Assembly (NCBI GenBank): GCA_050251945.1
Contig: JBFWLW010000003.1
Location: forward strand, 192,001-256,000
Direction of reading: 5' to 3'
DNA: 64,000 bases
Source of the DNA: Deferribacterales bacterium
GTDB taxonomy: Bacteria; Chrysiogenota; Deferribacteres; Deferribacterales; Geovibrionaceae
Shown: in pieces, positions 42,511 through 59,760 of the stretch
Numbering within the stretch: position 1 is the stretch's first letter
Layout: each line of letters begins with the position of its first letter
Made by a program: the position numbers and the translations under genes
Notes under the pieces: generated by a model
Told to the model about the DNA's origin: nothing
Database searches by the model: none
The model's input: only the letters and a program-made list of their open reading frames with translations

Positions 42511-43215
42511 ATGGAAAACACTGTAGTATCAATACCCAGAATAGGCGAGCAGGCACCTGAATTTAAAGCTGTAACAACACAGGGCGAGATAAATTTTCCC
42601 GCAGACTATAAAGGAAGCTGGGTCATCTTTTTCAGCCACCCCGCAGATTTCACACCTGTATGCACATCCGAGTTTATGACATTTGCGAAGATGGAAAACG
42701 ACTTCGCGGCATACAACTGTAAACTGGTGGGTCTCTCTGTTGACGGACTTTACAGCCACATAGCATGGCTGCGCAATATCAAGGAAAAGATAGACTTCAA
42801 AGGCATGAAAGGCATGGAAGTCAAATTCCCCCTCATTGAAGATATCACAATGGAAGTGGCGAAGAAATACGGAATGATTCAGGAGGGCGAAAGCAACACA
42901 AAAGCTGTCAGAGCGGTTTTCGTTATCGACCCCAAAGGCGTGATACGCACTGTGCTTTACTATCCGCTGAGCACCGGACGCAACTTTGACGAACTTCTGA
43001 GAATCGTCGTTGCTCTTCAGACAGCGGACGCTTTCACATGTGCGACACCGGCAGACTGGAGACCCGGCGACGAAGTTATCGTTCCGCCCGCAGGTTCATG
43101 CGGCGTTGCAAAAGACAGGGTTGAAGGCAAAGAAGAAAACGTGAAGTGCTATGACTGGTACTTCTGTACAAAACCTGTCAGCGCACAGGAAATAGATTCC
43201 AAACTTAAAAAGTAA
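42511..43215 (+). CDS. Peroxiredoxin (Prx6 family with C-terminal cysteines)
   Basis: HPADFTPVCTSE, GRNFDE, ATPADW and CYDWYFC motifs. Confidence 0.93.
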   Translation: MENTVVSIPRIGEQAPEFKAVTTQGEINFPADYKGSWVIFFSHPADFTPVCTSEFMTFAKMENDFAAYNCKLVGLSVDGLYSHIAWLRNIKEKIDFKGMKGMEVKFPLIEDITMEVAKKYGMIQEGESNTKAVRAVFVIDPKGVIRTVLYYPLSTGRNFDELLRIVVALQTADAFTCATPADWRPGDEVIVPPAGSCGVAKDRVEGKEENVKCYDWYFCTKPVSAQEIDSKLKK

Positions 43216-43247
43216 CTTAACAGGGGGGCTGAAACGCCCCCCCCCCC

Positions 43248-43387
43248 CACGTTGTTGACAAACTAAATTTGCACATACTCACATTAGACTGCTTCGGGTT
43301 AAAACCCTCGCAGAGACGTTTTTTGTCTTCGCGAGGAGCGCATGCGACGACGCGATCCTCCATTTTCCTGACTTTGTCATCAGCCTG
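43248..43387 (+). mobile_element. MITE, short variant carrying a REP pair
   Basis: Terminal IRs CACGTTGTTGACAAA / TTTGTCATCAGCCTG. Homologous to three other copies. GC hairpins on both flanks. Confidence 0.8.
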
Positions 43388-43412
43388 AGGGGGCTTTTCA
43401 ACCCCCACAATT

Positions 43413-44843
43413 TTATAAATAACTCTTGGCTATCCCGCCCAGCTTGATTATTGATTTCTCAAATTTCGCATCCCACGGAAATCCGCAGTTTATCCGCATG
43501 AAGTTATTGTATTTCTGCTGGGATGAAAATATCCCGCCCGGCGAAAACGATATCTTTTCTTTCAGAGCTCTGGGGTACATGTCCAGAGTGTCCACCTTTT
43601 CGGGCATCTCCACCCACAGCACGAAACCGCCCTGCGGACGGGTGACACGCGTACCCTCGGGGAAATGACGCATTATCTGATATGTATACGTTTCCACCTG
43701 CGCCTTGAAACTGTTATTCATTTTGCGCAGATGTCTTGGGAATTTTCCTGATGCGAGGAAATGTGCAACCGTGAGCTGCGGAACTGTATTGGTCGCCATG
43801 CTGGAAGCTATCTTCTGGCGGAGTATTTCGTCGAAATATTTGCCCGGCTCTACCCAGCCCACACGGTAACCAGGCGCCAGACTTTTTGAAAAGGATGAAA
43901 CGTGTATCACGTTGCCGTTCCTGTCGTACTTTTTCAGGTTGCCGAGCCGTCTCCCGCCGAAATTGAAATCGCCGTTTATATCGTCCTCAATGATGGGAAT
44001 ATCCTTTTTATTGCAAAGCTCAACCATCTCTTTCCGTGCATCCTCCGGATAGGTGTGTCCCATAGGGTTGCCATAGTTCGGCTGAACCAGAACGGCTTTC
44101 ACATCGAAACGGCTTAGAGCTTCTTTGAAGTCTTTCATAAGAATACCGTTTTGAGGGCTGGTTGGCAGTTCCAGTGCATAGACCTTCGCCGTTTCAAGCA
44201 GATGCATGAATCCGAAATAGCTGGGCGATTCCATAAGCACAAGATCGCCGGGGCGCGTTACTGCCCGCATCGCCATTGTGATCCCTTCGGAAGCGCCGTT
44301 TGTTATTATTATATTGTCGCTGGTGACAGAATTGCCGTTCATGTTCATGTAATAGGCAAGTTGCTGACGGAAAAATTTATGTCCCTGAACGTCGCCGTAT
44401 TCCACACGCGCTTCGCTGTCGGTGGATAACAGTTTTTTCATTATGCTGTTCAGTTCTCTGTGAGGTAACAGTTCAGTTGCAGGCATCGCACAGCCAAGGG
44501 GAACGATATCCGGATTGGTGATGGCATACAGTATTTCCTGTATCAGACTGCTGTTCTTAACCTGCATCGGCTGGTCGCTGGGTTTTGTGACACGAACCGC
44601 CTCGCGGGGAACAATTGTTCCGCCGGACACATAAAACCCTGACTGGGGGCGGGCTTCAAGCATGCCCACACTTTCAAGTTCCATATACGCCTGCATCACC
44701 GTGGAGAGACTGACGCTCTGCTCCTCGCTCATTTTTCTCAGCGAGGGAACCTTGTCACCCGGGCGTAGAACTTCATTTTCCATCATGGTGACTATAACAT
44801 CCATAACCTGTCTGTACCGGAATTCCTGCTTAACTTTTGCCAT
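43413..44843 (-). CDS. MocR/GabR-family PLP-dependent regulator (YdcR-like)
   Basis: wHTH PSLR..VSLSTVMQAY..GFYV and aminotransferase domain SFSKSLAPGYRVGW. Confidence 0.92.
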   Translation of the reverse strand: MAKVKQEFRYRQVMDVIVTMMENEVLRPGDKVPSLRKMSEEQSVSLSTVMQAYMELESVGMLEARPQSGFYVSGGTIVPREAVRVTKPSDQPMQVKNSSLIQEILYAITNPDIVPLGCAMPATELLPHRELNSIMKKLLSTDSEARVEYGDVQGHKFFRQQLAYYMNMNGNSVTSDNIIITNGASEGITMAMRAVTRPGDLVLMESPSYFGFMHLLETAKVYALELPTSPQNGILMKDFKEALSRFDVKAVLVQPNYGNPMGHTYPEDARKEMVELCNKKDIPIIEDDINGDFNFGGRRLGNLKKYDRNGNVIHVSSFSKSLAPGYRVGWVEPGKYFDEILRQKIASSMATNTVPQLTVAHFLASGKFPRHLRKMNNSFKAQVETYTYQIMRHFPEGTRVTRPQGGFVLWVEMPEKVDTLDMYPRALKEKISFSPGGIFSSQQKYNNFMRINCGFPWDAKFEKSIIKLGGIAKSYL

Positions 44844-44852
44844 ACAGTCCTC

Positions 44853-44905
44853 AACTGTTATGTAAACATTTCTATTTTTCTGTATCTGTTATGGTAACTG
44901 TTATT
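44853..44905. promoter_or_regulatory. Putative MocR operator: three CTGTTAT direct repeats
   Basis: CTGTTAT at 44855, 44886 and 44898, in the divergent promoter region. Confidence 0.55.
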
Positions 44906-45056
44906 GCTGTATTTTACAATCAGAAAGTGGGCAGGAGACAAGCCTTTTGAAATTCAGAAGGCTGGCTTCCGAAAAGACCGATGGTAAATAAAGATTTTTT
45001 GTAATATAAGAATCACCATAGAGCGAACACTTAATTCCGAAACATGAGGTGGCATC

Positions 45057-45323
45057 ATGACGACTAAACAGGAGCTAAAACTAAAACGGTTTCAGACCAA
45101 AGGTTTTGAAAACGCAAAGTCACTCAGCATCTATTGCAGCGAAGGTTCATTATGGATAACAGCAGGCAACGCACTGGGCGACCGTGTGCTTTATGCAGGC
45201 AAAGAACTCCACATAATCGCATCAGACAAGGTTGTTGTTGAGGCTCTTGCAGACAGCGTTTCTTTTGTTACAGTCATGGCGGATATGCCACATCCCCATA
45301 CAATGACAGCAAATAACGACTAA
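45057..45323 (+). CDS. DUF2917-like small cupin protein
   Basis: CSEGSLWIT..GDRVLYAG..VVVEAL. GAGG RBS. Divergent from the MocR regulator. Confidence 0.75.
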   Translation: MTTKQELKLKRFQTKGFENAKSLSIYCSEGSLWITAGNALGDRVLYAGKELHIIASDKVVVEALADSVSFVTVMADMPHPHTMTANND

Positions 45324-45392
45324 GTTTAATATATGGCACGCATATGTGCCTTCTGAGGAATATATCCTCCTATCTCTTCAAGCGTAGAAAAA

Positions 45393-45416
45393 GGGCGGCT
45401 TCGTGCCGCCTTTTTT
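45393..45416 (+). terminator. Intrinsic terminator
   Basis: GGCGGC-TTCGT-GCCGCC-TTTTTT. Confidence 0.8.
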
Positions 45417-45426
45417 CAATTATATA

Positions 45427-45905
45427 CACTCTCAAACGACTTCCATGTCGTTTGTTCGCAACGCTTCGTGCGGAATGAATCCGCACTGCGCTCACGCTCC
45501 TCTCGACTCGACACCAAAGGCGCCTCGTCTCAATCCGCGAAGCACATCCATGTGCTTTTGACGCCTTTTTTCAATTAAGCACTCTTAAACGACTTCCGTG
45601 TCGTTTGTTCGCAACGCTTCGTGCGGAATGAATCCGCACTGCGCTCACGCTCCTCTCGACTCGACACCAAAGGCGCCTCGTCTCAATCCGCGAAGCACAT
45701 CCATGTGCTTTTTACGCCTTTTTTCAATTAAGCACTCTCAAACGACTTCCGTGTCGTTTGTTCGCAACGCTTCGTGCGGAATGAATCCGCACTGCGCTCA
45801 CGCTCCTCTCGACTCGACACCAAAGGCGCCTCGTCTCAATCCGCGAAGCACATCCATGTGCTTTTGACGCCTTTTTTCAATTAAGCACTCTCAAACGACT
45901 TCCAT
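45427..45905. repeat. 153-bp tandem repeat, three near-identical copies plus a 20-bp partial copy
   Basis: Units start at 45427, 45580, 45733 and 45886, with only 2-3 substitutions between copies. Confidence 0.95.
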
Positions 45906-45922
45906 ATGCTTTTGACATTTCC

Positions 45923-46762
45923 ATGCTAAAATCTGTAATGCATGATGAACTGAAATACCTGATTAAAAATTCAAAGACCTGCCTGTTTCTGACCGGAGCG
46001 GGAATGAGCGCGGACAGCGGTATTCCTACGTTCAGAGACCGCGACGGCTATTGGCGGAACTTTCCCATTTTCAAAGAAAAGGGACTCCTGCCGCAGGAGC
46101 TTGCATCTCCGGCTTCGTTCCGCAGACAGCCGCATCACAGCTGGGCGTTTTACGAATGGCGCAGGCGCAACGCACGTATGAATACCCCTCACAAAGGTTA
46201 CGAGGTCATAAACCGCATGGTTTCGGATATTTTTGAAGACAGTTTCGTCCACACCACAAACACGGACGGATATCATATAATTTCAGGTCTGCCCGCAGAC
46301 CGTGTGACAGAAATACACGGCAGTATGTGGCGGCTTCAATGCATGAGCGGCTCATCGTGCCGCTACGGTGTCCGGCACAATACCGACGTCCCGCTTCTGG
46401 AGATGGACGAAAACACAATGTCCGCACTTACGATGCCGAAATGTCCGGTTTGCGGAAACCTTCTGCGTCCCAATATATTAATGTTCAACGACCGGGAATA
46501 CATAGACAACGATGTTCAGCTAAACCATTTTGAAAATTTTCTGGAAAAGCACGACCGGATCGACCTCATTTTACTGGTAGGCTCCAGCAGTCAGATACCA
46601 ACCAACGACTATATTGCGAAACGTCTGAAACAATACGGAAGCAGAGTTGTCACCATAAATCCTGATCCATCATCGGCAAGGGTATGCAGTCCCGACATAT
46701 TTATAAAAGAACGTTCGCTCCCGGCTTTTGAAGCCATTGAAAAAATCCTTAACTCCTTCTGA
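45923..46762 (+). CDS. Sir2-family NAD-dependent deacylase
   Basis: GAGMSADSGIPTFR, TTNTDG, EIHGS, CPVCG, LRPNILMF, VGSS and INP motifs. Confidence 0.9.
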   Translation: MLKSVMHDELKYLIKNSKTCLFLTGAGMSADSGIPTFRDRDGYWRNFPIFKEKGLLPQELASPASFRRQPHHSWAFYEWRRRNARMNTPHKGYEVINRMVSDIFEDSFVHTTNTDGYHIISGLPADRVTEIHGSMWRLQCMSGSSCRYGVRHNTDVPLLEMDENTMSALTMPKCPVCGNLLRPNILMFNDREYIDNDVQLNHFENFLEKHDRIDLILLVGSSSQIPTNDYIAKRLKQYGSRVVTINPDPSSARVCSPDIFIKERSLPAFEAIEKILNSF

Positions 46763-46782
46763 CAAAACATACTAAAAAAGGC

Positions 46783-46811
46783 TTGACACAGGCAGGCTCA
46801 ACTCATATTGT
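46783..46811 (+). promoter_or_regulatory. Sigma70-type promoter of the hrcA operon
   Basis: TTGACA-N17-TATTGT immediately upstream of CIRCE. Confidence 0.75.
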
Positions 46812-46816
46812 AGGCA

Positions 46817-46843
46817 TTAGCACTCATGACATGTGAGTGCTAA
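46817..46843. promoter_or_regulatory. CIRCE element (HrcA operator)
   Basis: Perfect TTAGCACTC-N9-GAGTGCTAA. Confidence 0.97.
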
Positions 46844-46859
46844 CAAAACGGTGTGAGCG

Positions 46860-47897
46860 ATGAATTTCCTTAACGACAGAGAAGAAGCCGTTCTTAAAAC
46901 TATCATTGAAGAGTTTGTGCAGAGCAACGAACCCGTCGGCTCAAGGCACATTTCAAAAACAGGTCCGCTGAAACTCGGTCCCGCCTCCATCCGCAACATA
47001 ATGAGCGATCTGGAGGAAAAGGGATATATACTTCAGCCCCATACTTCTGCGGGCAGAGTACCCTCCGACGAGGGATACAGGTATTACATCGACAGACTGG
47101 TGACCTTCGGACTTTCCGACAAGGCTATTCTTGAACAGTTGAAAAGCGACTGCAGTGCAGAAAACATAAACGGCATGTTCAAAAAAGTAAGCGACAACCT
47201 GGGTCGTCTGACACGTTCAGTAGGTTTTGTTATATCACCGAAACTCAACACCATGCTTCTGAAACATATTGAATTCATAAGGCTGAACAGCTCAACCGTT
47301 CTGGCGGTCATCGTCGCCAAAACAGGCATAGTGCATAACGTTATGATCGATATTCCGCCTTCTGTGACAGACAGCGAACTGACACAGATAAGCAATTATC
47401 TGAACACCCACTTTACAGACAAAAGCCTTATGGAGGTCAAAACCTCAATTCTGGACGAAATGCGCCGCGACAAAAACCATATGGACGCACTGCTGCAGAA
47501 TGTTATGAACGTAACTGAAAGAGTTTTTCATAATACAGATTTCGGACAGGACATAATCGTAAGCGGAACCACAGGGATACTCGACCTGCCGGAATTCAGC
47601 GACGTATCACGTCTCAAAGGGCTTTTTCAGACGTTTGAGGAGAAGAAATTCATCTTTGACATTCTGGACAAATGCCAGAACGCAACTGGGGTAAACATCT
47701 TCATAGGCTCCGAAATAGGGCGCTCCGAAGTCAGCGAGCTTGGGCTTGTTACAAAAACCTATTCCAGAGGCGGAAACGTTATAGGGATGCTCGGCATCAT
47801 TGGTCCCAAAAGAATGCGCTACTCCGACGTCGTATCCGTTGTGGACTGCTCCGCCGAACTTGTTTCGGGCATCATGGGCAAGTTTTTAGAGAAGTAA
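46860..47897 (+). CDS. hrcA: Heat-inducible transcription repressor
   Basis: EPVGS, SIRNIMSDLE, HTSAGRVPS and IIGPKRMRY motifs. Confidence 0.96.
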   Translation: MNFLNDREEAVLKTIIEEFVQSNEPVGSRHISKTGPLKLGPASIRNIMSDLEEKGYILQPHTSAGRVPSDEGYRYYIDRLVTFGLSDKAILEQLKSDCSAENINGMFKKVSDNLGRLTRSVGFVISPKLNTMLLKHIEFIRLNSSTVLAVIVAKTGIVHNVMIDIPPSVTDSELTQISNYLNTHFTDKSLMEVKTSILDEMRRDKNHMDALLQNVMNVTERVFHNTDFGQDIIVSGTTGILDLPEFSDVSRLKGLFQTFEEKKFIFDILDKCQNATGVNIFIGSEIGRSEVSELGLVTKTYSRGGNVIGMLGIIGPKRMRYSDVVSVVDCSAELVSGIMGKFLEK

Positions 47898-47941
47898 ACA
47901 GGATGGCTGGCTTAAAACCCATGCCAGCGTCATATAAGACG

Positions 47942-48020
47942 GGATCGCCGCGTCGCTTCACTCCTCGCGAAGACGTACTTCTGTCTCTGCGAAGAAGCAA
48001 CAGGCTGACGAAGCAGTCTC
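47942..48020. repeat. REP pair between hrcA and grpE
   Basis: GGATCGCCGCGTCGC..CCTCGCGAAGAC and GTCTCTGCGAAG..GACGAAGCAGTCTC. Confidence 0.75.
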
Positions 48021-48056
48021 ATTTGTTTAAAAGGAAATAAGTAAAAGAGGACATAC

Positions 48057-48581
48057 ATGGAAGAAATGGAAAACAAAGAGCAGCAGGAAGAGACGCCGAA
48101 AGACGAACTTACTCTTCTGCGCGAACAGAACGAACGCCTCGCCGAGGCGCTCGCCGCCGCAAAAGACAGCGAACTGCGCTCTCTGGCGGAGATGGACAAC
48201 GTGCGCAAAAGGCTCACAAAGGAGTTTGACGACAAGCTGAAATACTCCAACCTGAACCTGATATCCGCACTGTTCCCCGTTATGGATAATTTTGAAATGG
48301 CGCTTAGCCACATCTCCGGCGAGAATCCGGTGGAAGGTCTTAAAGAGGGCGTTCATCTCACACTGAAGCAGATGAGTGAAACCCTTGAGAAATACGGACT
48401 GAAAGAGATAGAGCTTAACATCGGCGATGAATTCAACCCCCAGTTCCACGAGGCGCTGATGGTTGACTGTGACGAAAACTATGAAGACAACAAGATCCTC
48501 ATGGTGCTGCAAAAAGGATACACCCTCCACGGCAGAGTGGTTCGCCCCTCGAAAGTGAAGGTCAACAAAAGGAATAATTGA
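48057..48581 (+). CDS. grpE: Nucleotide exchange factor GrpE
   Basis: AEMDNVRKR, FNPQFHEA and QKGYTLHGRVVRP motifs. Confidence 0.96.
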   Translation: MEEMENKEQQEETPKDELTLLREQNERLAEALAAAKDSELRSLAEMDNVRKRLTKEFDDKLKYSNLNLISALFPVMDNFEMALSHISGENPVEGLKEGVHLTLKQMSETLEKYGLKEIELNIGDEFNPQFHEALMVDCDENYEDNKILMVLQKGYTLHGRVVRPSKVKVNKRNN

Positions 48582-48608
48582 AAAGATATACAATCTCAGG
48601 AGGAAACA

Positions 48609-50534
48609 ATGGCAACATCCAAAAAGGTCATCGGTATTGACCTCGGAACCACAAACTCATGCGTAAGCATTATGGAGGGCGGTCAGCCCAAAGTTATCGC
48701 TAACTCTGAAGGCGCGCTTACAACGCCTTCGGTTGTGGCTTTTACAGATTCTGACAGACTGGTCGGTATGCTGGCGAAAAGACAGGCGATAACCAACCCG
48801 GAAAACACAATATTCTCTATTAAACGTCTGATAGGACGTAAATCTGATGCCCCAGAAGTGGCAAAAGCAAAAAAAGTGCTTCCCTATCAGATAGTCGGTT
48901 CAGACAACAACGATGCATGGGTTGAAGTTAAAGGTAAAAAATACGCTCCTCAGGAAGTTTCAGCTATGATACTTCAGAAGCTGAAATCCACTGCGGAAGA
49001 TTATCTTGGCGAAACCGTCACAGATGCTGTAATCACAGTTCCCGCTTACTTCAACGACGCTCAGCGTCAGGCAACAAAAGATGCGGGCAAGATCGCAGGT
49101 CTTAACGTGCTTCGTATCATCAACGAACCCACAGCCGCAGCGCTTGCATACGGTCTGGACAAAAAGCACGACGAGAAAATCGCAGTGTACGACCTTGGCG
49201 GCGGTACGTTCGATATCTCCATCCTTGAACTGGGTGACGGCGTATTTGAAGTTAAGTCAACCAACGGCGATACTTTCCTCGGCGGTGACGACTTTGACAT
49301 GCGCGTAGTTGAGTGGCTTGTGGATGAGTTCAAAAAATCCAACGCTCTCGACCTTCGCAACGACAAAATGGCTCTTCAGCGTCTGAAAGAGGCCGCTGAA
49401 AAAGCTAAACACGAACTTTCAACAGCAGGCGAAACAGAGATAAACCTTCCGTTCATCACTGCTGATGCAACCGGTCCCAAACACCTTGTTGTTAAACTCT
49501 CCAGAGCAAAATTCGAGTCTCTGGTTATGGATCTGGTCGTAAACTCACTGGAGCCTTGCAAAAAAGCTCTTCAGGATGCAGGTCTTTCCGCAAGCCAGAT
49601 AGACGAAGTCATCCTTGTCGGCGGTATGACCCGTATGCCGCTGGTTCAGCAGAAAGTTAAAGAATTCTTCGGCAAAGAACCCCATAAAGGCATCAACCCC
49701 GATGAAGTTGTTGCAGTGGGTGCGGCAATTCAGGGTGCGGTTCTTTCAGGCGACGTAAAAGACGTTCTCCTGCTGGACGTTACTCCTCTGTCACTGGGTA
49801 TCGAAACTCTGGGCGGCGTTATGACAAAAATCATCCCCAGAAACACAACAATACCCGCACGCCAGAGCCAGACTTTCACGACCGCAGCAGACAGCCAGAC
49901 CTCTGTTACCATCAGCGTAATTCAGGGCGAACGTGAAATGGCAAACGACAACAAACATATCGGACGCTTCGACCTCGTTGGTATCCCTGCGGCTCCCCGC
50001 GGCGTTCCGCAGATCGAAGTTACATTCGATATAGATGCGAACGGTATCCTGCACGTTTCCGCCAAAGATCAGGGAACAGGCAAAGAACAATCCATCCGCA
50101 TCACTCCTTCAAGCGGTCTGTCCGATGACGAAATAAACAAAATGGTCAAGGATGCCGAACTCAACGCCGACGCGGACAAAAAGAAAAAAGAACTCGTTGA
50201 GGCAAGAAATCAGGCGGATACGCTTGTTTACTCAACTGAAAAATCACTGTCCGAACACGGCGACAAAGTCGATGGACAGACAAAAGAAGCCATCGAAAAA
50301 GCTCTTGCCGACCTGAAAGCAAAATCAGCAGGTGAAGACCCCGCAGCCATCAACGCGGCTATCGAAGAGCTTACAAAAGCTGCTCATAAACTTGCCGAAG
50401 AAATATACAAAGCGGCACAGGCACAGCAGCAGGAAGCACAGTCACCCGACGGCACAGAGCAGACACAGCAGGGTAAACCCGCTGACGACGTTGTTGACGC
50501 CGAGTTTGAAGAAGTTAAAGACGAAAAGAAATAA
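48609..50534 (+). CDS. dnaK: Chaperone DnaK
   Basis: [25 protein letters not shown] and DVVDAEFEE motifs. Confidence 0.98.
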
Positions 50535-50546
50535 TAATTTTCTATC

Positions 50547-50580
50547 AAAGGGGGCTGACGGACATCGGCTCCCTTTTTTT
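50547..50580 (+). terminator. Intrinsic terminator after dnaK
   Basis: AAGGGGGCTGA..TCGGCTCCCTT plus T-run. Confidence 0.65.
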
Positions 50581-50604
50581 GTTTTATTCTCTCTTTAAAG
50601 AGGT

Positions 50605-50706
50605 CAGGCAGTTGACAAACAGGTCAATTTATAATTAGACTGCCGCGTCAGCCTGCGGCTTCCTCGCAGAGACATTCATTCGTCTTTGAGAACGAAGTGA
50701 AGCAAA
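50605..50706. repeat. Degenerate MITE left end with a decayed REP pair
   Basis: CAGGCAGTTGACAAAC followed by ATTAGACTGCCGCG..CCTCGCAGAGAC. Confidence 0.55.
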
Positions 50707-50727
50707 CTGATTTTACGGAGCTTAACA

Positions 50728-51849
50728 TTGGCTAAAGATTACTATGAAACTCTGGGCGTTAATAAAAACGCCACAGAAACCGAACTGAAAAAAGCATACA
50801 GAAAACTCGCCATGCAGTATCACCCAGACAGAAATCAGGGCAACAAAGAGGCGGAAGAGAAATTCAGGGAAATTAACGAGGCATATTCCATTCTGTCAGA
50901 CGGCACAAAACGTGCGCAGTATGACCAGTACGGAAGGGTCTTTGACGATAAAAACGGCGGATTCGGCGGAGGCGGAGGATTCGGAAACGGAGATACCATC
51001 TTTGAAGAATTCTTCGGAGACGTTTTCGGCGATTTCTTCGGCACAGCCGGAAGCACCAGACGCAAACGCAGACCCCAGAAGGGCACAAATATACAGATGG
51101 GGCTTGAAATCTCCTTTGAAGAAGCGGCGTTCGGCTGCGAAAAGGAACTCAACGTACCCAAAACCGAAAACTGTTCGCGATGTGACGGAACGGGAGCCGA
51201 ACCGGGCGCTATGGAAACATGCCCCACATGTCACGGTTCCGGCACTATCCAGCGCAGGCAGGGTCTTTTCGCCATCAGCACCCCTTGCGGTACATGCGGC
51301 GGAACTGGACAGATAATCAAAGAACTCTGCAAAGAGTGCCGCGGTGAAGGCACAAAACGCGTCACAACCAAGCTGAGCGTCAAAGTTCCCGCAGGCATAG
51401 AGGACGGCATGACGATGCGTCTCTCAGGAAAGGGCAATTCAGGCAGCAACGGCGGTCCCGCAGGCGACCTTTTCATAGAGGTTTCGGTGTCCCCTCACAA
51501 GCTTTTCAAAAGAGACGGACGGGAAATATACATGGAACTCCCGATATCATTCGTTGACGCGATACTCGGCAAATCCATAGATATTCCGACACTGAACGGT
51601 GCAGAAAAAATAACCATCAAAGCCGGCTCACAGCCAGGTGACAAGATAGTTCTGAAAGGCAAGGGACTTCCCGACGTTCAGGGCATCGGCATCGGAAATA
51701 TGAACATTGAACTCAAAGTTCTGCTCCCCACACAGCTTACTAAGGAGCAGAAGGATCTTCTGGAACAGTTCGATCTTACGGTTACGGAAGAAACATATCA
51801 CTCCCAGAAAACCCTTTGGGACAGAATGAAAGAATTTTTTAAAGCGTAG
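50728..51849 (+). CDS. dnaJ: Chaperone DnaJ
   Basis: J domain HPD, G/F region and four CxxCxGxG repeats. Confidence 0.97.
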
Positions 51850-51877
51850 AAAACAGCGGGCGGCTTTTATGCCGCGT

Positions 51878-52115
51878 CAGACTTATGATAAAGTCAGGAA
51901 AATGCAGGATCGCGTCGTCGCGTGCGCTTCTCGCGAAGACAAAACAACGTCTCTGCGAGGGTTTCAACCCGAAGCAGTCTAATTTCCATATTTCTCCCTC
52001 CTTTAGCAAAAGGAGGGTTGGGGTGGATTTGATTGATGTTTAATCAAAATCCCCCTTATTCCCCCTTTTCTAAAGGGGGAGATAGGAACGTAAAATCCAG
52101 TTTGTCAACAACCTG
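51878..52115 (-). mobile_element. MITE, long variant in inverted orientation, with duplicated terminator flanks
   Basis: Ends CAGACTTATGATAAAG / TTTGTCAACAACCTG. GGGCGGCTTTTATGCCGC at 51858-51875 and 52117-52134. Confidence 0.87.
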
Positions 52116-52125
52116 AGGGCGGCTT

Positions 52126-52623
52126 TTATGCCGCCTTTTTTAATGCCTTCATGGCAGGGCATTTATTATCCACAAAGCTGACCAGAAGCGCCGCACAGAT
52201 ACCCAGCGAAACTTCCACGAACCTGTCGAACCCGATACGCCATGCAACCTCGCTGTGGTGCATCAGCAGGATGATTGCAAAAGTCACGCCGCCGAGCCTG
52301 TATGCGCTCACTGTCAGTTTCATCGCGTAGCAGATCATCCCCATTATGAATATCCCAAGACCGAAATTCAGAGTGTTCACTTCCGGAAAGACGTAGTTGA
52401 AGGCGCCGGCGAAAAGCGCGCCCGTTACCGTTCCGATAAGTCTTTGTTTGGAAGTGTCCCATGACTGACCAAGTGTAGACTGCATCACGATTATAGCTGA
52501 TATTGGCGCCCAGTAATATTCTGCAAGACCCAGCAGTTTTGCCGACGAAAGCGACAGCATCGCAGCAGCCGCAGTCCAGAAGGAGTGTCTCACCCACATG
52601 TTATTCAATAAATTCCTAAGCAT
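52126..52623 (-). CDS. FUSC/aromatic acid exporter-like membrane protein
   Basis: YWAPISAIIVMQ, QRLIGTVTGA and RFVEVSLG motifs. Confidence 0.82.
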   Translation of the reverse strand: MLRNLLNNMWVRHSFWTAAAAMLSLSSAKLLGLAEYYWAPISAIIVMQSTLGQSWDTSKQRLIGTVTGALFAGAFNYVFPEVNTLNFGLGIFIMGMICYAMKLTVSAYRLGGVTFAIILLMHHSEVAWRIGFDRFVEVSLGICAALLVSFVDNKCPAMKALKKAA

Positions 52624-52761
52624 TGTCTGTCACCTTTTATGTAATAATAATCATAACCTATACAAAAAATTATTCAATGACCGATGCTTTTTAAGTTTTA
52701 TCTGGATTAATTCATGCAAATTACCTATATATGAAGCTGTATGTAAAAGGAGAGCGGTATT

Positions 52762-54147
52762 ATGTCTGAAAAGATGTGGTCAGGGCGCTTTACACTGCCC
52801 ACCGACAAGTTTGTGGAAGAATTCAACGCATCAATCCACTTTGACAAAAGATTTTATAAATACGATATCAAAGGAAGCCTTGCCCACGCGCGTATGCTGG
52901 GCAGACAGGCCATCATCTCCGAAGCCGACGTTAAGGACATCGAAAGGGGACTGGCGCAGGTTCTGGACGAAATAGAAACAGGCAGGTTTCAATTCCGCAC
53001 GGAAGATGAAGATATCCACATGGCTGTGGAAAAACGTCTCACCGAGATAATCGGTGACGCGGGCAAACGGCTGCACACGGGAAGAAGCAGAAACGATCAG
53101 GTGGCTGTTGACTTCCGAATGTATCTGAAAGCGGAGATTGAAGAGACCATGGCGCTGGTGAAGCACCTGCTTGGCACCATTATAGCCAAGGCAGAGAAAA
53201 ACATTGATGTTTACATGCCCGGATTCACCCACCTTCAGACGGCACAGCCAATACTTTTCTCACAGTACATAATGGCTTATTTCCAAATGCTTAAAAGAGA
53301 CTACGGCAGGTTTGCAGACTGTCTGGAACGTATGGACTACAGCCCTTTGGGTTCCGGCGCTCTGGCAGGGACAACTTTTCCCATAGACAGACATTTCACA
53401 GCGAACGAACTGGGCTTTAAGGCGCCCACAGAAAACACTCTGGATTCAGTCAGTGACAGGGATTTCGCAATCGAATTTCTCTCCGCCTGCGCGATATGCC
53501 AGATGCACCTTTCCAGATTCTCCGAGGAACTGATAATTTATTCCACATCTGAATTCGCTTTTATAGAGCTTTCTGACGACTTCTGCACCGGTTCCAGCAT
53601 CATGCCGCAGAAGAAGAATCCAGACATGCCGGAGCTTATCCGCGGTAAAACAGGAAGAGTTTACGGAAGTCTGATAAGCATGCTTACAACCATGAAAGGT
53701 CTGCCCCTTGCATATAACAAGGACATGCAGGAGGACAAGGAGCCTGTTTTCGACGCTGTGGACACCATAAAAGCATCGCTTAAGATATTCGCACCCATGG
53801 TGGAAAAGATGAAACTGCGCACTCCGAAAATGGAACAGGCGGCAACAGCCGGATATTCCACCGCCACAGACTATGCAGACTACCTTGTGCGCAAAGGCGT
53901 GCCGTTCAGGCAGTCTCACCACATCGTCGGCTCAACTGTGGCATACGCCATACAGAAGGGCGTGGACATAAGCGAACTGACACTTGACGAGTTCAAAAAG
54001 TTTTCGGATGTGATAGAATCAGATATCTATGACGCTATCACCCTGCAGGCGTCAGTTAACGCAAGAAAAGCATATGGCGGCACTGCAAAAACCGCTGTTG
54101 AAACACAGATAAATAACGGGAAAAACTTTTTAAATGAAATACGCTAG
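52762..54147 (+). CDS. argH: Argininosuccinate lyase
   Basis: [26 protein letters not shown] and YNKDMQEDK motifs. Confidence 0.97.
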
Positions 54148-55009
54148 TCTTATTTTAGCTCTTTTTCTGATACTCGCCGGATGCGGAAAGAAAACCAATC
54201 CGGTTCCGAAATCCGCTCTTGCAGACATGACGCCGCCTACGGCTGTATTTGTTTCCGTTGATGATGCGGGTATCCGTATCGACAATCAGGAATCCGATCA
54301 GCTCTTTATCGAAAAAGGCGTTTCAGCGGACGACGAATGTTCTGTTTTCAACTTTTTAAAAGTGATAGATCCGAAATCAGTCTTCATAGACGAAGACGTT
54401 CAGTCCGGATTTAAATACTTTTACAGGCTGCGCAAAAGGTCTGTAAAATACGGCGTACTCTCAGAACCTTACATGGCGAAAGTAGTCTATGCGAAACCTA
54501 TGAAGGTTCAGAGCGCAAAATATACGAAAGAGGGCGGGATTTACCGCGTCTCCATTGAGACCGATGACAAATTCACCCGTTTCGACGTTTATTCCGGCGG
54601 AAAGACCATCGCGCAGACCGGCGGGAAAACGATAACTTTTCCGGAATCTTCTGTCGTTGATAATAAATTCTATCTGATACTGTCCGACTACGACGGTAAC
54701 AGAGGAACACCGTACACAATTGAGATACCTGTGCAGAAGGTGCTTAATCCGCCTCTGCCCGTTACAACTATTTCCGTGCTGAACATCGGAGCCGACACTC
54801 GCATCGTCTGGAGCGATTCCGAAGGCGCGGAAACATATAATGTTAAAGCGTGTGAAAATGTTTCATGTGAAACGTTTTCCACACAAAACACATCCGTGGC
54901 ATACCAAAAGACGATCAAAAGCTGTCTGGACATAACAGTTACCGCCGTGAATGCAGACGGCGAGTCCGCACCGACAAAGATACGCTACTGCAAACCGGAA
55001 GAGGAATAA
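54134..55009 (+). CDS. Lipoprotein with Fn3-like beta domains
   Basis: Lipobox LAGC followed by GKKTNPVP. C-terminal [10 protein letters not shown] is Fn3-like. Confidence 0.75.
54859..54874. promoter_or_regulatory. Candidate parS site
   Basis: TGTTTCATGTGAAACG, 14/16 match to TGTTTCACGTGAAACA. Confidence 0.45.
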
Positions 55010-56349
55010 TGTTTACCATAGGAATCATAGGACGCCCGAACGTGGGCAAATCCACACTGTTTAACAGACTGGCGGGAAAAAAAATTGCAATCGTTGACGA
55101 TATGCCCGGCGTTACCCGCGACAGAATAGAATTCGTTGCAGAATGGGACGGATACAGGTTCACCATAGTGGACACAGCCGGATTTGACCTTAAAGAAGAA
55201 TTGCTTAAAAAAGAAATGCAGGCTCAGTTCATGATCAACCTGAGCGAAGCCGACTACTTTATCCTTATGACAGACGGCGTTGAAGGAGTACATCCCCTTG
55301 ACGAAATAGTCATCGACCTGCTCCGCCAGACAGGCAAACCATATCAGGTTGTTGTCAACAAAGTAGACAGCGATGCAAAAGAAATTCTCACATACGACTT
55401 TTTCCGTCTCGGCGTGGACGAGATAATCGGTATCAGCGCCACTCACGGGCGGAATGTTGATGTGCTGCTTGATAAAATAGTTGAGCAGATACCTGAAGAC
55501 CATGACAAAACAGACCCCTACGAAGGCAGAATAAAGCTTATCGTGACAGGAAGACCTAACGTCGGCAAATCCAGCATGATCAACAAGTGGCTGGGACAGA
55601 ACAGACTTATCGTCACCCCCGTCCCCGGCACAACAAGGGACGCTGTTGACACCTTCTTTGAATATAATGATCAGAAATACGTCCTCATCGACACGGCGGG
55701 GATCCGTAAAAAGAAGATAATGTTCAAGGACAAGATAGAGAAATACGGCTATCACCGCTGGGAAGATGCCGTTGAGCGCGCGGATATCGCCGTGTGTATC
55801 ATAGACGCAAACGAAGGACTGACTGACAGAGACGTTAAGGTAATAGCGGACAACTGGGAAGCGGGTAGACCCGTTATCCTTGTTGCGAACAAATGGGATC
55901 TTATAGAAAGCAAGGACGAACGTGCCAAGGAATTCCTTAAGGATATTGACCATCACCTTCAGTTTCTGAATAAACCTTCGCTGATTTACACTTCAACTCT
56001 GACAAGTAAGAACATCTTTAAGGTGTTCGACGCTGCGAAAGAGCTTTATAAGGAATACAGCAAACGTATCTCCACCCACAAGCTTCAGGAGGTATTGCAG
56101 GAAGCCGTACAGCGCCACCAGCCGCCTGTGACACGCAACAGAAGGGTGAAGTTCTACTTCATCACTCAGGTTTCCACCTGTCCTCCGGAATTCGTGGTAT
56201 TCGTTAACTATCCTGACGCGGTGCATTTCTCTTACCAGCGATTCATAGTGAATATCATCCGCGCACACCACAGCTTTGACGGTGTACCTATCAAGATACA
56301 CTTCCGCCAGCGCGGCGAATCCAAAAACACTCCAATACCTGAATATTAG
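55009..56349 (+). CDS. der: Ribosome biogenesis GTPase Der/EngA
   Basis: Two G domains (GRPNVGKS, DTAG, NKxD) and a KH-like C-terminus. Confidence 0.96.
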   Translation: MFTIGIIGRPNVGKSTLFNRLAGKKIAIVDDMPGVTRDRIEFVAEWDGYRFTIVDTAGFDLKEELLKKEMQAQFMINLSEADYFILMTDGVEGVHPLDEIVIDLLRQTGKPYQVVVNKVDSDAKEILTYDFFRLGVDEIIGISATHGRNVDVLLDKIVEQIPEDHDKTDPYEGRIKLIVTGRPNVGKSSMINKWLGQNRLIVTPVPGTTRDAVDTFFEYNDQKYVLIDTAGIRKKKIMFKDKIEKYGYHRWEDAVERADIAVCIIDANEGLTDRDVKVIADNWEAGRPVILVANKWDLIESKDERAKEFLKDIDHHLQFLNKPSLIYTSTLTSKNIFKVFDAAKELYKEYSKRISTHKLQEVLQEAVQRHQPPVTRNRRVKFYFITQVSTCPPEFVVFVNYPDAVHFSYQRFIVNIIRAHHSFDGVPIKIHFRQRGESKNTPIPEY

Positions 56350-56373
56350 TAAAAGGACAGCTTCGGCTGCCAT

Positions 56374-56610
56374 CAGGTTGTTGACAAACTGGATTTTACG
56401 GTCCTATCTCCCCCTTTAGAAAAGGGGGAATAAGGAGGATTTTGATTAAACATCAATCAAATCCACCCCAACCCTCCTTTTGCTAAAGAGGGAGAAATAT
56501 GGAAATTAGACTGCTTCGGGTTAAAACCCTCGCAGAAACTTTTTTTTGTCTTCGCGAGGAACACATGCGACGACGCGATCCAGCATTTTCCTGACTTTGT
56601 CATCAGTCTG
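56374..56610 (+). mobile_element. MITE, long variant with duplicated terminator flanks
   Basis: CAGGTTGTTGACAAA / TTTGTCATCAGTCTG. GGRCAGCTTCGGCTGCC at 56355-56371 and 56611-56627. Confidence 0.87.
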
Positions 56611-56839
56611 GGGCAGCTTCGGCTGCCTTTTATTTTTACTCATTATTTCAATTCTGTCGTCTGAAAATAATATTCAGCCATGAGCAAATGCTGATTTTTC
56701 ACTGAGAAAAGCCACATTTTGCAGATTATTCTGGAAATATTGCGCCAGTTGTAATATAAGTCAAAACCTATACCCTCGTTTTTGCGTCGCAACAAAAAAG
56801 AGGCAGGCGTAAGCCAAATACTTATTTAGAAGGTGTTAT

Positions 56840-58150
56840 ATGCGTTATGACCTGGCCAAAAGCGGAAACGGCCTGACCTATGAGATCCGCAATATTGTCA
56901 ATGTTGCTAAGATCCTTGAGCAGCACGGCGTCGAAATCTGTTACGAGAATATCGGCGACCCGGTTGCAAAAGGCGAGATCATCCCCGACTGGATGAAAGA
57001 TACCATCGCTGATCTTGTCAGAAACAACAACATGACCTTTGCCTACTGCCCCACAAAAGGCGATTACGACGTCCGCGAATTTCTCGCGGAACGCACAAAC
57101 GCCAGAGGCGGAGTGCAGATTACAAAAGACGACATCATTTTTTTCAACGGACTTGGCGACGCAATAGCACGAGCGTATAGCTCAATCAGAGTGGATGCAA
57201 GGGTGATGCTGCCTGAGCCGACCTACTCAACACACCTTCTGGCGGAAGTTCTCCACGCATCATTTCCGCCCAACACGTACAGAATGAACCCTTATAACAA
57301 CTGGGCTCCCGATCTCAACGAGCTTGAGAAAAAAGTGGAAAGCCACAAATCTATAGTGGGTATTCTGGTCATAAACCCCGACAACCCCACAGGGTATGTC
57401 CACACTGAGGACGACCTGCGCAGGATCGTCAATATGGCAAAAGAACACGACCTGATGCTTATCTTTGACGAAATATACCTTAACATGGTCTATAACGGTA
57501 AGAAGACCATAGCCCTTTCCGACATAATCGGAGACGTTCCGGGCATCGCCATGAAGGGAATATCAAAAGAGTTCCCCTGGCCGGGCGCACGCTGCGGCTG
57601 GATGGAAATTTACAATGCAGACAAGGACGAAGCCTTCAAACGCTTCACAAACGCTATACTGAACCAGAAAATGGCTGAGGTCTGCTCAACGACTCTGCCC
57701 CAGATGTCCATTCCCCACATAATGACACATCCGATGTACACAACGTATCTGAACGAAAGGCTCAAACACTATGAAAAGCTGTCCAACATCGCATACAACA
57801 TGCTGAAAGACTGCCCATATGTGGTCGTTAACCGCTCAAACGGCGCTTTCTACATGTCTGTTGTGTTTAATGAAGCTGTTCTGAACAAAAACCAGAAGCT
57901 GAACATCGAAATTAAAGAGGTGCGCGACATCGTTGATAAGATGTGCGAGGACAAAATGAGCCACGACAAGCGCTTCGTATATTATCTGCTTGGTGCAACA
58001 GGCATTTGTGTGGTTCCGCTTACTTCGTTCTTTACATCTATCCCCGGATTCCGTATGACTCTGCTTGAAAAGAACGTTGAAAAATTTGAGCAAACCGTAA
58101 CCACCATCAAAGAAAAAATAGCGGAATACGTCGAATCAGGAAGCTGTTAA
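56840..58150 (+). CDS. PLP-dependent class I/II aminotransferase (AlaA-like)
   Basis: LTYEIR, ENIGDP, NPDNPTG, DEIY and GISKEFPWPGARCGW motifs. Confidence 0.88.
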   Translation: MRYDLAKSGNGLTYEIRNIVNVAKILEQHGVEICYENIGDPVAKGEIIPDWMKDTIADLVRNNNMTFAYCPTKGDYDVREFLAERTNARGGVQITKDDIIFFNGLGDAIARAYSSIRVDARVMLPEPTYSTHLLAEVLHASFPPNTYRMNPYNNWAPDLNELEKKVESHKSIVGILVINPDNPTGYVHTEDDLRRIVNMAKEHDLMLIFDEIYLNMVYNGKKTIALSDIIGDVPGIAMKGISKEFPWPGARCGWMEIYNADKDEAFKRFTNAILNQKMAEVCSTTLPQMSIPHIMTHPMYTTYLNERLKHYEKLSNIAYNMLKDCPYVVVNRSNGAFYMSVVFNEAVLNKNQKLNIEIKEVRDIVDKMCEDKMSHDKRFVYYLLGATGICVVPLTSFFTSIPGFRMTLLEKNVEKFEQTVTTIKEKIAEYVESGSC

Positions 58151-58177
58151 ACAATTAAGGGAGCCTTTCGGCTCCCT

Positions 58178-58318
58178 CAGGTTGTTGACAAACTAAATTT
58201 ACACAGACTCGCATTAGACTGCTTCGGGTTAAAAACCCTCGCAGAGACGTTTTTTTGTCTTCGCGAGGAACGCATGCGACGACGCGATCTCGCATTTTAC
58301 TGGCTTTTCATCAGTTTA
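58178..58318 (+). mobile_element. MITE, short variant with a 20-bp duplicated terminator
   Basis: CAGGTTGTTGACAAA start. AGGGAGCCTTTCGGCTCCCT on the left (58158-58177) and on the right, where it is split by IS3. Confidence 0.87.
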
Positions 58319-58425
58319 AGGGAGCCTTTCTGAACTGTCCCCCAAAAATTGGACACAAATAAAAAGAGCCCTTTAGCGCAAGCTAAGGGGCTTTTTTCGT
58401 GTAAACTAATTTAAAGGAGCAGCCA

Positions 58426-58812
58426 ATGAGACAAAGAGAATTTACACCAGACGAACGTCAGTCTTTGGAAAGTAACCCGAATGTACTCAAGGTAGGCAAC
58501 AGCAACATCACCTACACAGCAGATTTCCGTCAACATGCCTTAAATTGTTATTATGACGGAGAACCACCCAGAAAAATCTTCAAACAGGCAGGGATAGATA
58601 TATCCATCTTCCCCGAAGGTTACCCTGAATCCACCATAAGCCGATGGCACAACGCCGAGAAGAAACCACATAAAAGCTCTCGTAAATCAGGTAGTGGACG
58701 CCCCAAGAAGACCAGTAACATGACTACAGAGGAGATGGAGGCAAGAATAGCCTATCTTGAAGCGGAGAACGATTTCCTAAAAAAGCTACGTGCCTTGGAG
58801 AGAGGCGAATAA
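58426..58812 (+). CDS. IS3 transposase OrfA
   Basis: HTH-like region, GRPK and coiled coil LEAENDFLKKL. Confidence 0.9.
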   Translation: MRQREFTPDERQSLESNPNVLKVGNSNITYTADFRQHALNCYYDGEPPRKIFKQAGIDISIFPEGYPESTISRWHNAEKKPHKSSRKSGSGRPKKTSNMTTEEMEARIAYLEAENDFLKKLRALERGE

Positions 58813-59699
58813 GACCACAATCTAAATATGGACTGATATCCGAGGCATTAAATAAGAGTAATAACCTGTCAGTATCGCTTCTTTGTATGTGTGCCGCAGT
58901 CAGTCGCAGCGGATATTACTACTGGCAGAAGCACGAAGGGGAAGCTGCTCTTCGTGATTTGGAAGCATTGAGATTAGTTCGGTCTGTCCATAAGAGATTT
59001 CATGGCAAAGCAGGTATCCGGACAATCCGTATGTATCTTGAGTTTAAGTACGGAGTGGTGATGAATCTAAAAAAGATATCCTGCATAAAAAAGACTTACG
59101 GGATAGATACTAAGATACGACGTAAAAACAAGTATAATACCTTTAATCATGCTGTGCATGAGAACGAGACCTCTCCCAATCTTGTGGACAGAATATTTAA
59201 TGTTGTAGAACCGGACAGAGTGTACTCAACAGATATAACATACCTTCCCTATTATGGCGGTAAGCAGGCATATTTATCAGCAACTAAAGATTTATGCAGC
59301 AGGGAGATAGTGCATTACAATGTCAGCCGTAATATCAGAACAGACCTTGCGTGTGAAGGTCTTTGCGATGTATTTAAGAAATTACCTGATGCTGTCAGAA
59401 GTAACCTGATTATCCATTCGGATCAGGGAGGTCATTACAGGAGCAAAGAGTTCAGGAGTCTTTTAAATGAGTACGGCATAAAGCAGTCGATGTCCAGAAG
59501 AGGTAATTGTCTGGATAACGCACCGATCGAAAGTTTCTTCGGTCACATGAAAGACGAGATAGAGCTTGGAAAATGCATCAGCTTCGATGATGTAAAAGAG
59601 ATGGTAAGTAAATATATCCGTTTCTATAATGAAGAGAGATACCAATGGACATTAAAAAAGATGACGCCGATTGAATACCGACGTCATCTTGATACTTGA
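58785..59699 (+). CDS. IS3 transposase OrfB (DDE), expressed by -1 frameshift
   Basis: A AAA AAG slippery site at 58779-58785, with the -1 frame open into TDITY, HSDQG and DNAPIESFF. Confidence 0.9.
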   Translation, partial: ATCLGERRIRPQSKYGLISEALNKSNNLSVSLLCMCAAVSRSGYYYWQKHEGEAALRDLEALRLVRSVHKRFHGKAGIRTIRMYLEFKYGVVMNLKKISCIKKTYGIDTKIRRKNKYNTFNHAVHENETSPNLVDRIFNVVEPDRVYSTDITYLPYYGGKQAYLSATKDLCSREIVHYNVSRNIRTDLACEGLCDVFKKLPDAVRSNLIIHSDQGGHYRSKEFRSLLNEYGIKQSMSRRGNCLDNAPIESFFGHMKDEIELGKCISFDDVKEMVSKYIRFYNEERYQWTLKKMTPIEYRRHLDT

Positions 59700-59760
59700 A
59701 AACTTAAAGGGCTTTTTTACTGTCCGAAAAACAGGGGACAGTTCATTCGGCTCCCTTTTT

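Follow-up and report, generated by a model that had tools for sequence, protein, structure and literature searches.

A miniature transposable element with IS1182-type ends that very probably inserts at terminator hairpins and duplicates them whole

The DNA analyzed here, called the window, is a stretch of 64,000 nucleotides from a Deferribacterales bacterium (contig C3 = JBFWLW010000003.1, positions 192001-256000; assembly GCA_050251945.1, hereafter G000, 3.07 Mb in 26 contigs). It harbors four copies, e1 to e4, of a short MITE (miniature inverted-repeat transposable element). With high confidence, this MITE is read as an element with the ends of IS1182-family insertion sequences (ISs) that inserts at the hairpins of transcription terminators and duplicates the whole hairpin in the process. 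It is a new MITE within a family already known for hairpin targeting and not a new kind of system. An original prediction, made from the letters of the window alone, had described four complete elements placed just after gene ends, and four complete elements were indeed found at the coordinates that it gave.

The MITE is recognized by its ends. The terminal inverted repeats, CAGGTTGTTGACAAA and the reverse complement of TTTGTCATCAGTCTG, agree at 13 of 15 positions and are conserved across copies. With up to three mismatches allowed, the window contains 13 occurrences of the 15-nt motif CAGGTTGTTGACAAA, compared with a mean of 2.05 after shuffling and with no shuffle out of 100 that reaches 13. 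A 31-nt internal core occurs three times where zero occurrences are expected. Within G000, end motifs with at most three mismatches were paired at a spacing of 90 to 420 bp, which gave 90 end pairs; blastn with the four window elements gave 604 matches. One pair lacks enough flanking sequence, and 89 were scored by their best ungapped repeat between the left and right flanks, and the control was the 99th percentile obtained when partners were shuffled in 20 rounds. The repeat exceeds this control in 70 of the 89 copies (median score 14 observed versus 0 in the control), so that duplication is the majority case. Its length is 16 to 30 bp in 67 of the 70 (mode 20-21) and 7 to 9 bp in the other three. 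The repeat is perfect in 27 of the 70, and in 59 it starts exactly at both element ends (offsets 0,0).

The size of nearly all 89 elements lies between 107 and 267 bp, with modes at 140, 155, 185, and 232 bp, and no open reading frame (ORF) fits into them. Several subtypes share the ends. Subtype B (about 140 bp) accounts for 54 copies, and a further 16 are B elements that an internal insert enlarges to 185 or 232 bp. Subtype A (about 155 bp, nine copies) has the same ends and a different, hairpin-rich interior. Two copies consist of the insert only, and six were assigned to no subtype. The A+B hybrid (237-238 bp) is present twice in G000, as e2 and e3, a composition that the original prediction had not noted. 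These two copies are 94% identical, lie in opposite orientation, and occupy different hairpins; the presence of so rare a hybrid at two hairpins is counted as a sign of recent movement. The 50 copies of 136 to 146 bp form clusters of 20, 12, 8, and 5 at 88% identity. Among them are one identical pair and one pair with 99.3% identity (C5:47878-48017, C21:8943-9082, and C2:109273-109412 are copies of this kind). Since the members of these pairs occupy different hairpins, the element must have moved recently. Tandem MITE pairs with a common middle hairpin, and hence three hairpin copies, are seen at C6:50982-51281 and C2:45095-45415, from which it follows that duplicated hairpins are targeted again. 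The contigs of four DNA sequencing runs break at the MITE repeats, and since not one of them spans an empty site, they are uninformative on polymorphism.

The repeated segment is a hairpin. Of the 70 repeats, 65 fold with at least 5 bp, and the median DNA folding energy is −7.75 kcal/mol as opposed to −0.1 kcal/mol for random 20-mers. An outer T or A run accompanies 55 of the 70, and the orientation of the element relative to this run is evenly split (19 to 19). The boundaries were analyzed in 56 copies whose junctions are exact and whose repeats measure 16 bp or more. In these, the foot of the stem marks the limit of the repeat, with no more than one unpaired nucleotide on the 5′ side in 52 and on the 3′ side in 46 copies, and the loops are mostly 4 to 5 nt long. 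The targets are distinct in 55 of the 56 copies, and the median pairwise identity among 20-mers is 0.40. These differences between copies contradict the idea that the hairpin repeats belong to the element itself. Insertion is a foot-to-foot duplication of a structure-defined target, without orientation bias and with little sequence preference. The earlier claim that the targets are alike in structure and not in sequence holds in the main but was slightly overstated, as a weak foot consensus of the form A-G-G...C-C-T is present. The first position of the repeat is an A in 43 of the 56 copies and the last a T in 44; G occupies position 2 in 40 copies and position 3 in 41, and the 3′ end mirrors this pattern.

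This consensus is the basis for an alternative in which the same transposase, acting as a symmetric dimer, reads the palindrome as B-form DNA by its AGG...CCT feet and cuts with a flexible stagger, so that no hairpin is extruded. The A at position 1 speaks for it, as does a mild enrichment of AGG at the start of the repeat (21 of 56 occupied repeats; among 252 terminator-like hairpins without an element, 60 start in this way; p = 0.04). On the other hand, if the active sites had a fixed spacing on B-DNA, a stagger of 16 to 30 bp that tracks the target from foot to foot would be difficult to explain, and the foot consensus is close to that of G000 terminators generally. The 252 unoccupied terminator-like palindromes also have the same length mode, 20, as the occupied ones. 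Recognition of B-form DNA is considered rather unlikely, although it is the most serious of the alternatives.

The end pattern of the MITE is found at 24 to 45 sites in each of four genomes of the same genus (G002, G004, G005, and G006), compared with 0 to 3 sites for a reversed-pattern control; G001 and G003 yielded no copies in a blastn search with e4. Many of the end matches in G002 and G004 are located some 120 bp away from the end of a contig. Read inward, these contig ends consist of a hairpin, CAG.TTG.TGACAAAC, a subterminal hairpin with a T run, and coding sequence. The ends of this longer element are CAGGTTGTTGACAAAC and CAGACTGATGACAAAC. The left end of the MITE matches the left end of the G004 element at 16 of 16 positions and its right end matches that of the G002 element at 15 of 16, and nothing is shared further inside. 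The mirrored asymmetry between left and right ends appears to be the strongest link between the MITE and its putative parent. As a separate observation, the inward-facing hairpin and T run lie 16 bp inside each end of the parent element (L104-L123, contig ends of G002 and G004) and resemble a terminator for transcripts that come in from outside the element.

The coding sequence at these ends belongs to a transposase. One end type enters the start of an ORF with a DUF772 domain, and the other type holds the closing part of a DDE_Tnp_1_6 domain. Both DUF772 and DDE_Tnp_1_6 were found on both G002 fragments and on a full-length homolog from G023, a genome of a different family in the same order; the G023 protein is 66% identical over 108 amino acids, and its gene adjoins a hairpin. 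On the NCBIfam IS1182 model NF033551, the G023 homolog scores 486.6 bits (cut-off 270). The G002/G004 fragments score 143.3 bits (model positions 4-125) and 61.8 bits (435-486), values that stay under the whole-protein cut-off because the genes are truncated at contig ends. The IS1182 guess of the original prediction therefore appears well placed, and its IS4-family alternative is not needed. Among 20 fetched ends from G002 and G004, seven left-right pairs within a genome share perfect hairpin repeats of 18 to 22 bp, and neither left-left nor right-right repeat pairs occur. Together with one further site in G002 (see below), this gives eight parent insertions with whole-hairpin repeats of 18 to 22 bp. 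The prediction had also suggested a genome-wide search for the ends and for a transposase bounded by them; the ends are plentiful, but a transposase with such ends was found only in G002 and G004 and not in G000. Judged from the shared ends and domains, the MITE is likely mobilized by an IS1182-family transposase that is seen only in sister species.

Two other sources of the enzyme were weighed. The first is an IS630/Tc1-type element, of which the MITEs would be deletion derivatives. Sixteen contig ends in G000 join either the first 100 bp of the MITE or unrelated DNA to an unassembled element of this type. Over the last 34 residues of its C-terminus, it shares 62% identity with DDE_3 transposases, as identified by phmmer (three matches, the useful one being a 47-amino-acid fragment that leads to DDE_3 proteins). 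The relatives of this element, however, are 1-kb elements that end in TA/GAGCAT with a duplicated TA, and the G000 junctions always lie at CTAG or TAG, including the CACTAGCC site in the 185/232-bp variant of the MITE, where both sides are seen. The element is also present at seven unrelated flanks, and it lacks the CAGGTTG ends of the MITE. Exact-pattern scans of genome contigs and metagenome contigs detected no junction between a MITE end and the IS630-type element. Because the junctions at CTAG/TAG show nesting inside the MITE, this parent is rejected, and the idea retains almost no credibility. The IS630-type (DDE_3) element itself has at least two subtypes and breaks the assembly at the 16 ends, for example at C1:1-110, C11:1-125, and C17:46626-46735.

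The second source is a hairpin-recognizing Y1 transposase (the REP-associated tyrosine transposase RAYT or an IS200-type enzyme) that moves single-stranded elements resembling repetitive extragenic palindromes (REPs) or REPINs. The conserved small hairpins in the MITE interior are reminiscent of such elements, and related palindromic repeats fill the intergenic DNA of the genus. G000, however, has no match to the Y1_Tnp profile (PF01797), REPINs make no target duplication whereas the MITEs have repeats of 16 to 30 bp, and the MITE ends are those of a DDE element. A Y1-driven origin is accordingly regarded as very improbable, and an IS1182-family transposase is the preferred source.

A further check on duplication comes from the orthologous sites, where a single hairpin was found for all four window loci. 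At the e1 site, G005 has a single hairpin, and G002 shares the same MITE insertion. At the e2 site, G005 has the single hairpin GGCGGCTTTCATGCCGCC followed by a T run. In G002, the e2 hairpin holds a full-length IS1182-type parent element with the 20-bp repeat TGGCGGCTTTTATGCCGCCT, and the position is anchored by synteny. The e3 site is a single hairpin in G001 and G003, and the e4 site in G005, G006, G001, and G003. At both e3 and e4, G002 carries another MITE subtype in opposite orientation with a perfect 20-bp repeat. Given this occupancy of the e2, e3, and e4 hairpins in G002, three of the four hairpins have been hit independently in two species. The predicted hairpin-guided insertion with duplication of the whole hairpin is thereby supported both by the census and by the empty sites at four of four loci. 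Separately, the orthologous e2 site of the MITE-less genomes G001 (L140) and G003 (L139/L144) has its intergenic space occupied by other palindromic repeats, of the form GAGATTGCC...hairpin...CGCAATGAC, and the MITE core (GACTGC-hairpin-CTCGCAGAGAC...) resembles them.

The flanking repeats could, in principle, have arisen without insertion, either by landing of the element between hairpins that were already in tandem or by later duplication through slippage. Tandem arrays do occur, as in the hairpin-MITE-hairpin-MITE-hairpin arrangement at C6:50982-51281, and relatives in metagenomes have unlike hairpins on their two sides. Neither route agrees with the single hairpin at every empty orthologous site found, with the 27 perfect repeats and the 59 of 70 copies with offsets of 0,0, or with the eight perfect cases of the parent element. 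An origin of the repeats other than insertion is considered highly unlikely, and duplication upon insertion is retained.

Duplication of whole hairpins extends to relatives on plasmids. A tblastn search with the G023 protein against complete plasmids returned 1186 matching records, seven of which were fetched. Whole-hairpin repeats of 16 to 23 bp at CAG...CTG ends are present in six of the seven, namely, in the copies from Bacillus subtilis, Alkalihalophilus pseudofirmus (ISBspe1), Clostridium estertheticum, Rhizobium leguminosarum, Aminobacter, and Klebsiella oxytoca. The ends of the seventh (B. pumilus, L205) were not resolved by the inverted-repeat script. From metagenomes, 31 loci were fetched. 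Hairpins adjoin both ends in all nine loci that include both, and the right end in all 12 loci that include only this end. In L175 and L181, what distinguishes the left hairpin from the right is a compensatory change of paired stem bases, and the loop of L181 is flipped.

Several points weigh against the reading given above. A clear repeat is absent from 19 of the 89 scored end pairs; some of these are decayed like e1, and some are probably chance pairs of ends. The G002/G004 element is known only from fragments at contig ends, and the family call is based on some 120 residues from the N-terminus and some 50 from the C-terminus, in addition to the G023 homolog. In the metagenome copies with both ends, the left and right hairpins are related in only two of nine (L175 and L181) and unlike in seven, for which chimeric assembly or recombination between copies could be the explanation. 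G000 has no IS1182-type transposase by tblastn or by the profiles NF033551, PF05598, and PF13751, even though some of its MITE copies are identical; the source of the enzyme for recent moves may be unbinned, lost, or unassembled. The same absence of IS1182, DUF772, DDE_Tnp_1_6, and Y1 transposases from the assembly, together with a length of 140 to 238 bp and the lack of coding capacity, bears out the prediction that the element is non-autonomous. Finally, IS1272, a family member of staphylococci, deletes the stem-loop partly or entirely and duplicates nothing, according to the available text of PMC4923244 and PMC5678879. Replacement of the stem-loop in the manner of IS1272 was rejected for the window elements, in which a stem-loop is present on both sides.

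The insertion may be pictured as follows. The transposase would read structure, that is, an extruded cruciform or hairpin, and not sequence. The two 3′ ends of the transposon would each be joined at the 5′ foot of the palindrome, one on each strand, and gap repair would then copy the whole palindrome. Joining at the 5′ feet with subsequent gap repair would mean that the length of the duplication is set by the target and not by the enzyme. Pathway b in Fig. 13 of PMC5678879, in the portion of that paper available, likewise predicts that all of the stem-loop is duplicated by joining at the 5′ feet. The inner hairpin copy would lose the T run and the outer copy would keep it, so that the upstream gene would still terminate, now past the element. 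Transcripts would then traverse the element before they end at the outer hairpin copy, and termination would be preserved as the original prediction proposed. The 20-bp repeats would additionally permit precise loss, which would fit turnover at the same hairpins. In the parent, the subterminal hairpin with its T run would replace the beheaded terminator, stop read-through, and shield the element's own gene. Taken together, a DDE transposase would dock on the extruded terminator cruciform, the shape of the target would dictate the spacing of the cuts (16 to 30 bp), and terminators would serve as a safe harbor that is hit and emptied repeatedly; this combined proposal stands evenly balanced between acceptance and doubt.

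In the window, each element with its left hairpin copy starts about 5 to 9 nt 3′ of the stop codon of an ORF. In Pfam, these upstream housekeeping ORFs match peroxiredoxin (e1), DnaJ (e2), a Der/EngA-type GTPase (e3), and an aminotransferase (e4). On both sides, e2, e3, and e4 carry the same site-specific GC-rich hairpin. As the prediction had it, e1 is flanked by two degenerate and mutually inverted G/C hairpins with loops that are reverse complements. Its left hairpin copy (G-run / CTGAAAC / C-run, 43223-43247) lies 7 nt past the stop of the peroxiredoxin-like ORF (42511-43215). It is followed by e1 itself (43248-43387, plus strand, 140 bp, B type, ends CACGTTGTTGACAAA and TTTGTCATCAGCCTG) and by the right hairpin copy with the inverted loop (43388-43408). 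A convergent GntR/aminotransferase ORF, 3′ of e1, ends at 43413. Reverse-complement loops at e1 occur in G002 as well. A fifth, decayed member, which the prediction had not listed, lies between dnaK-like and dnaJ-like ORFs (50605-50720, plus strand, end approximate). It retains the left end CAGGCAGTTGACAAAC and a core-like part, and its right end is not recognizable.

The left hairpin copy of e2, GGGCGGCTTTTATGCCGCGT (51858-51877), begins 8 nt past the dnaJ-like stop. The 238-bp A+B hybrid e2 (51878-52115, minus strand) and the right copy AGGGCGGCTTTTATGCCGCCT (52116-52136) with its T run follow. The left hairpin copy of e3, GGACAGCTTCGGCTGCCAT (56355-56373), begins 5 nt past the Der/EngA-like stop and precedes the 237-bp hybrid e3 (56374-56610, plus strand). 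The right copy GGGCAGCTTCGGCTGCCT (56611-56628), which is followed by TTTATTTTT, is terminator-like by scan. At e4, the left hairpin copy AGGGAGCCTTTCGGCTCCCT (58158-58177) lies 7 nt past the aminotransferase-like stop, and the element (58178-58318, plus strand, 141 bp, B type) has a degenerate right end, TTTTCATCAGTTTA. Its right hairpin copy starts with the 5′ arm and loop only, AGGGAGCCTTTC (58319-58330), is split by an IS3-family element (58331-59745, plus strand, TGAACTGTCCCCC...GGGGACAGTTCA), and resumes at 59746 as TTCGGCTCCCT with a T run; the remainder (TTC + GGCTCCCT) spans 59746-59756. After it come the T run and a convergent gene, an order shared with the empty sites that G005, G006, G001, and G003 have here. 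Hairpin copies on both sides of three elements, as predicted, are therefore present at e2, e3, and e4, with the correction that the right copy of e4 is whole but split by the IS3-family element, and not truncated. The loop of the e4 hairpin reads TTTC in G000, GAAA in G005, and TGAAAG in G002, which are flipped loops.

The IS3-family element is separate from the MITE family. It scores 254.3 bits on NF033516 (cut-off 160), has ORFs at 58426-58812 and 58887-59699, and sits in the hairpin loop with a 3-bp duplication, TTC. Near-identical ends of this IS are found at five G000 contig ends, and every flank consists of one hairpin arm and loop; its group may have terminator loops as a preferred target. 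A scan of 43000-58600 against Rfam gave no family at the gathering score, with six weak matches at chance level. The predicted RNA fold of e4 together with its left hairpin has a z-score of −3.8, which is not taken as a sign of RNA function.

How IS1182-family elements choose their targets is unsolved, and IS1272, which deletes its target, is the sole studied member. The genus studied here offers a natural data set of about 70 MITE and eight parent insertions with exact junctions, together with matched empty sites and, as a background set, about 250 unoccupied terminators. The rules that can be read from it are that ends are joined foot to foot, that stems have 5 bp or more and loops mostly 4 to 5 nt, and that sequence preference is slight. 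One transposase and a 140-bp substrate would be enough to test the system, and structure-guided insertion at terminators has a practical side as well, since a landing site of this kind would do little damage. Such elements also bear on annotation, in that they duplicate terminators, lengthen 3′ untranslated regions, and break short-read assemblies.

Other systems are aimed at palindromes as well. Direct repeats of 0 to 60 bp are given for the IS1182 family in its ISfinder entry. The IS3-family elements IS1397 and ISKpn1 insert in REP palindromes. They are similar to the MITE in being aimed at extragenic palindromes, as is the IS3-family element at 58331 in its terminator loop. They differ in that they use another transposase family and insert into the loop with a duplication of 3 to 4 bp, which is not a foot-to-foot duplication. 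No MITE with duplication of entire terminators was retrieved by the literature search, which did not extend to ISfinder, TnPedia, or Siguier 2015, where a prior description is likely. In the available part of a 2024 review of prokaryotic MITEs, the term 'IS1182' is absent, and the accessible table of another review lists the mechanism of the family as 'Unknown' (PMC6199540).

IS1182-derived MITEs related to ISMac2 have been described in Methanosarcina acetivorans as multi-copy elements of 160 to 169 bp with inverted repeats of 25 to 26 bp (PMC3852290, available portion). Like the window MITEs, they are short and non-autonomous, and their inverted repeats link them to an IS1182-family element. 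Unlike the window MITEs, they are listed with direct repeats of 4 or 0 bp, and hairpin targeting is not reported in that portion of the text. In staphylococci, IS1272/TnSha1 of the IS1182 family targets stem-loops, many of them confirmed terminators, without a sequence consensus (PMC4923244, PMC5678879). As far as the available text of the two papers goes, they credit Siguier 2015 with the finding that some family members target palindromic sequences. Repeated independent insertions of IS1272 at the same hairpin, in both orientations, are described (PMC4923244), and the e2 to e4 hairpins have likewise been hit repeatedly and independently. The outcome differs: IS1272 is described there as deleting the stem-loop, whereas the MITE duplicates the whole stem-loop, as in pathway b of PMC5678879.

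Among the closest counterparts is the IS1182 clade with CAG..TG.TGACAAA ends, which comprises ISBspe1 and the Bacillus, Clostridium, Rhizobium, Aminobacter, and Klebsiella plasmid copies. Its transposases are 54 to 64% identical to the G023 homolog. The members of this clade are autonomous elements of 1.55 to 1.65 kb, whereas the window MITEs are non-coding, measure 140 to 238 bp, share only 15 to 16 bp per end, and, unlike the clade, have no parent in their own assembly. The end motif is the same in both, and the ISBspe1 clade, like the MITE, targets the foot of a GC-rich hairpin beside A/T runs and duplicates the whole hairpin (16 to 23 bp).

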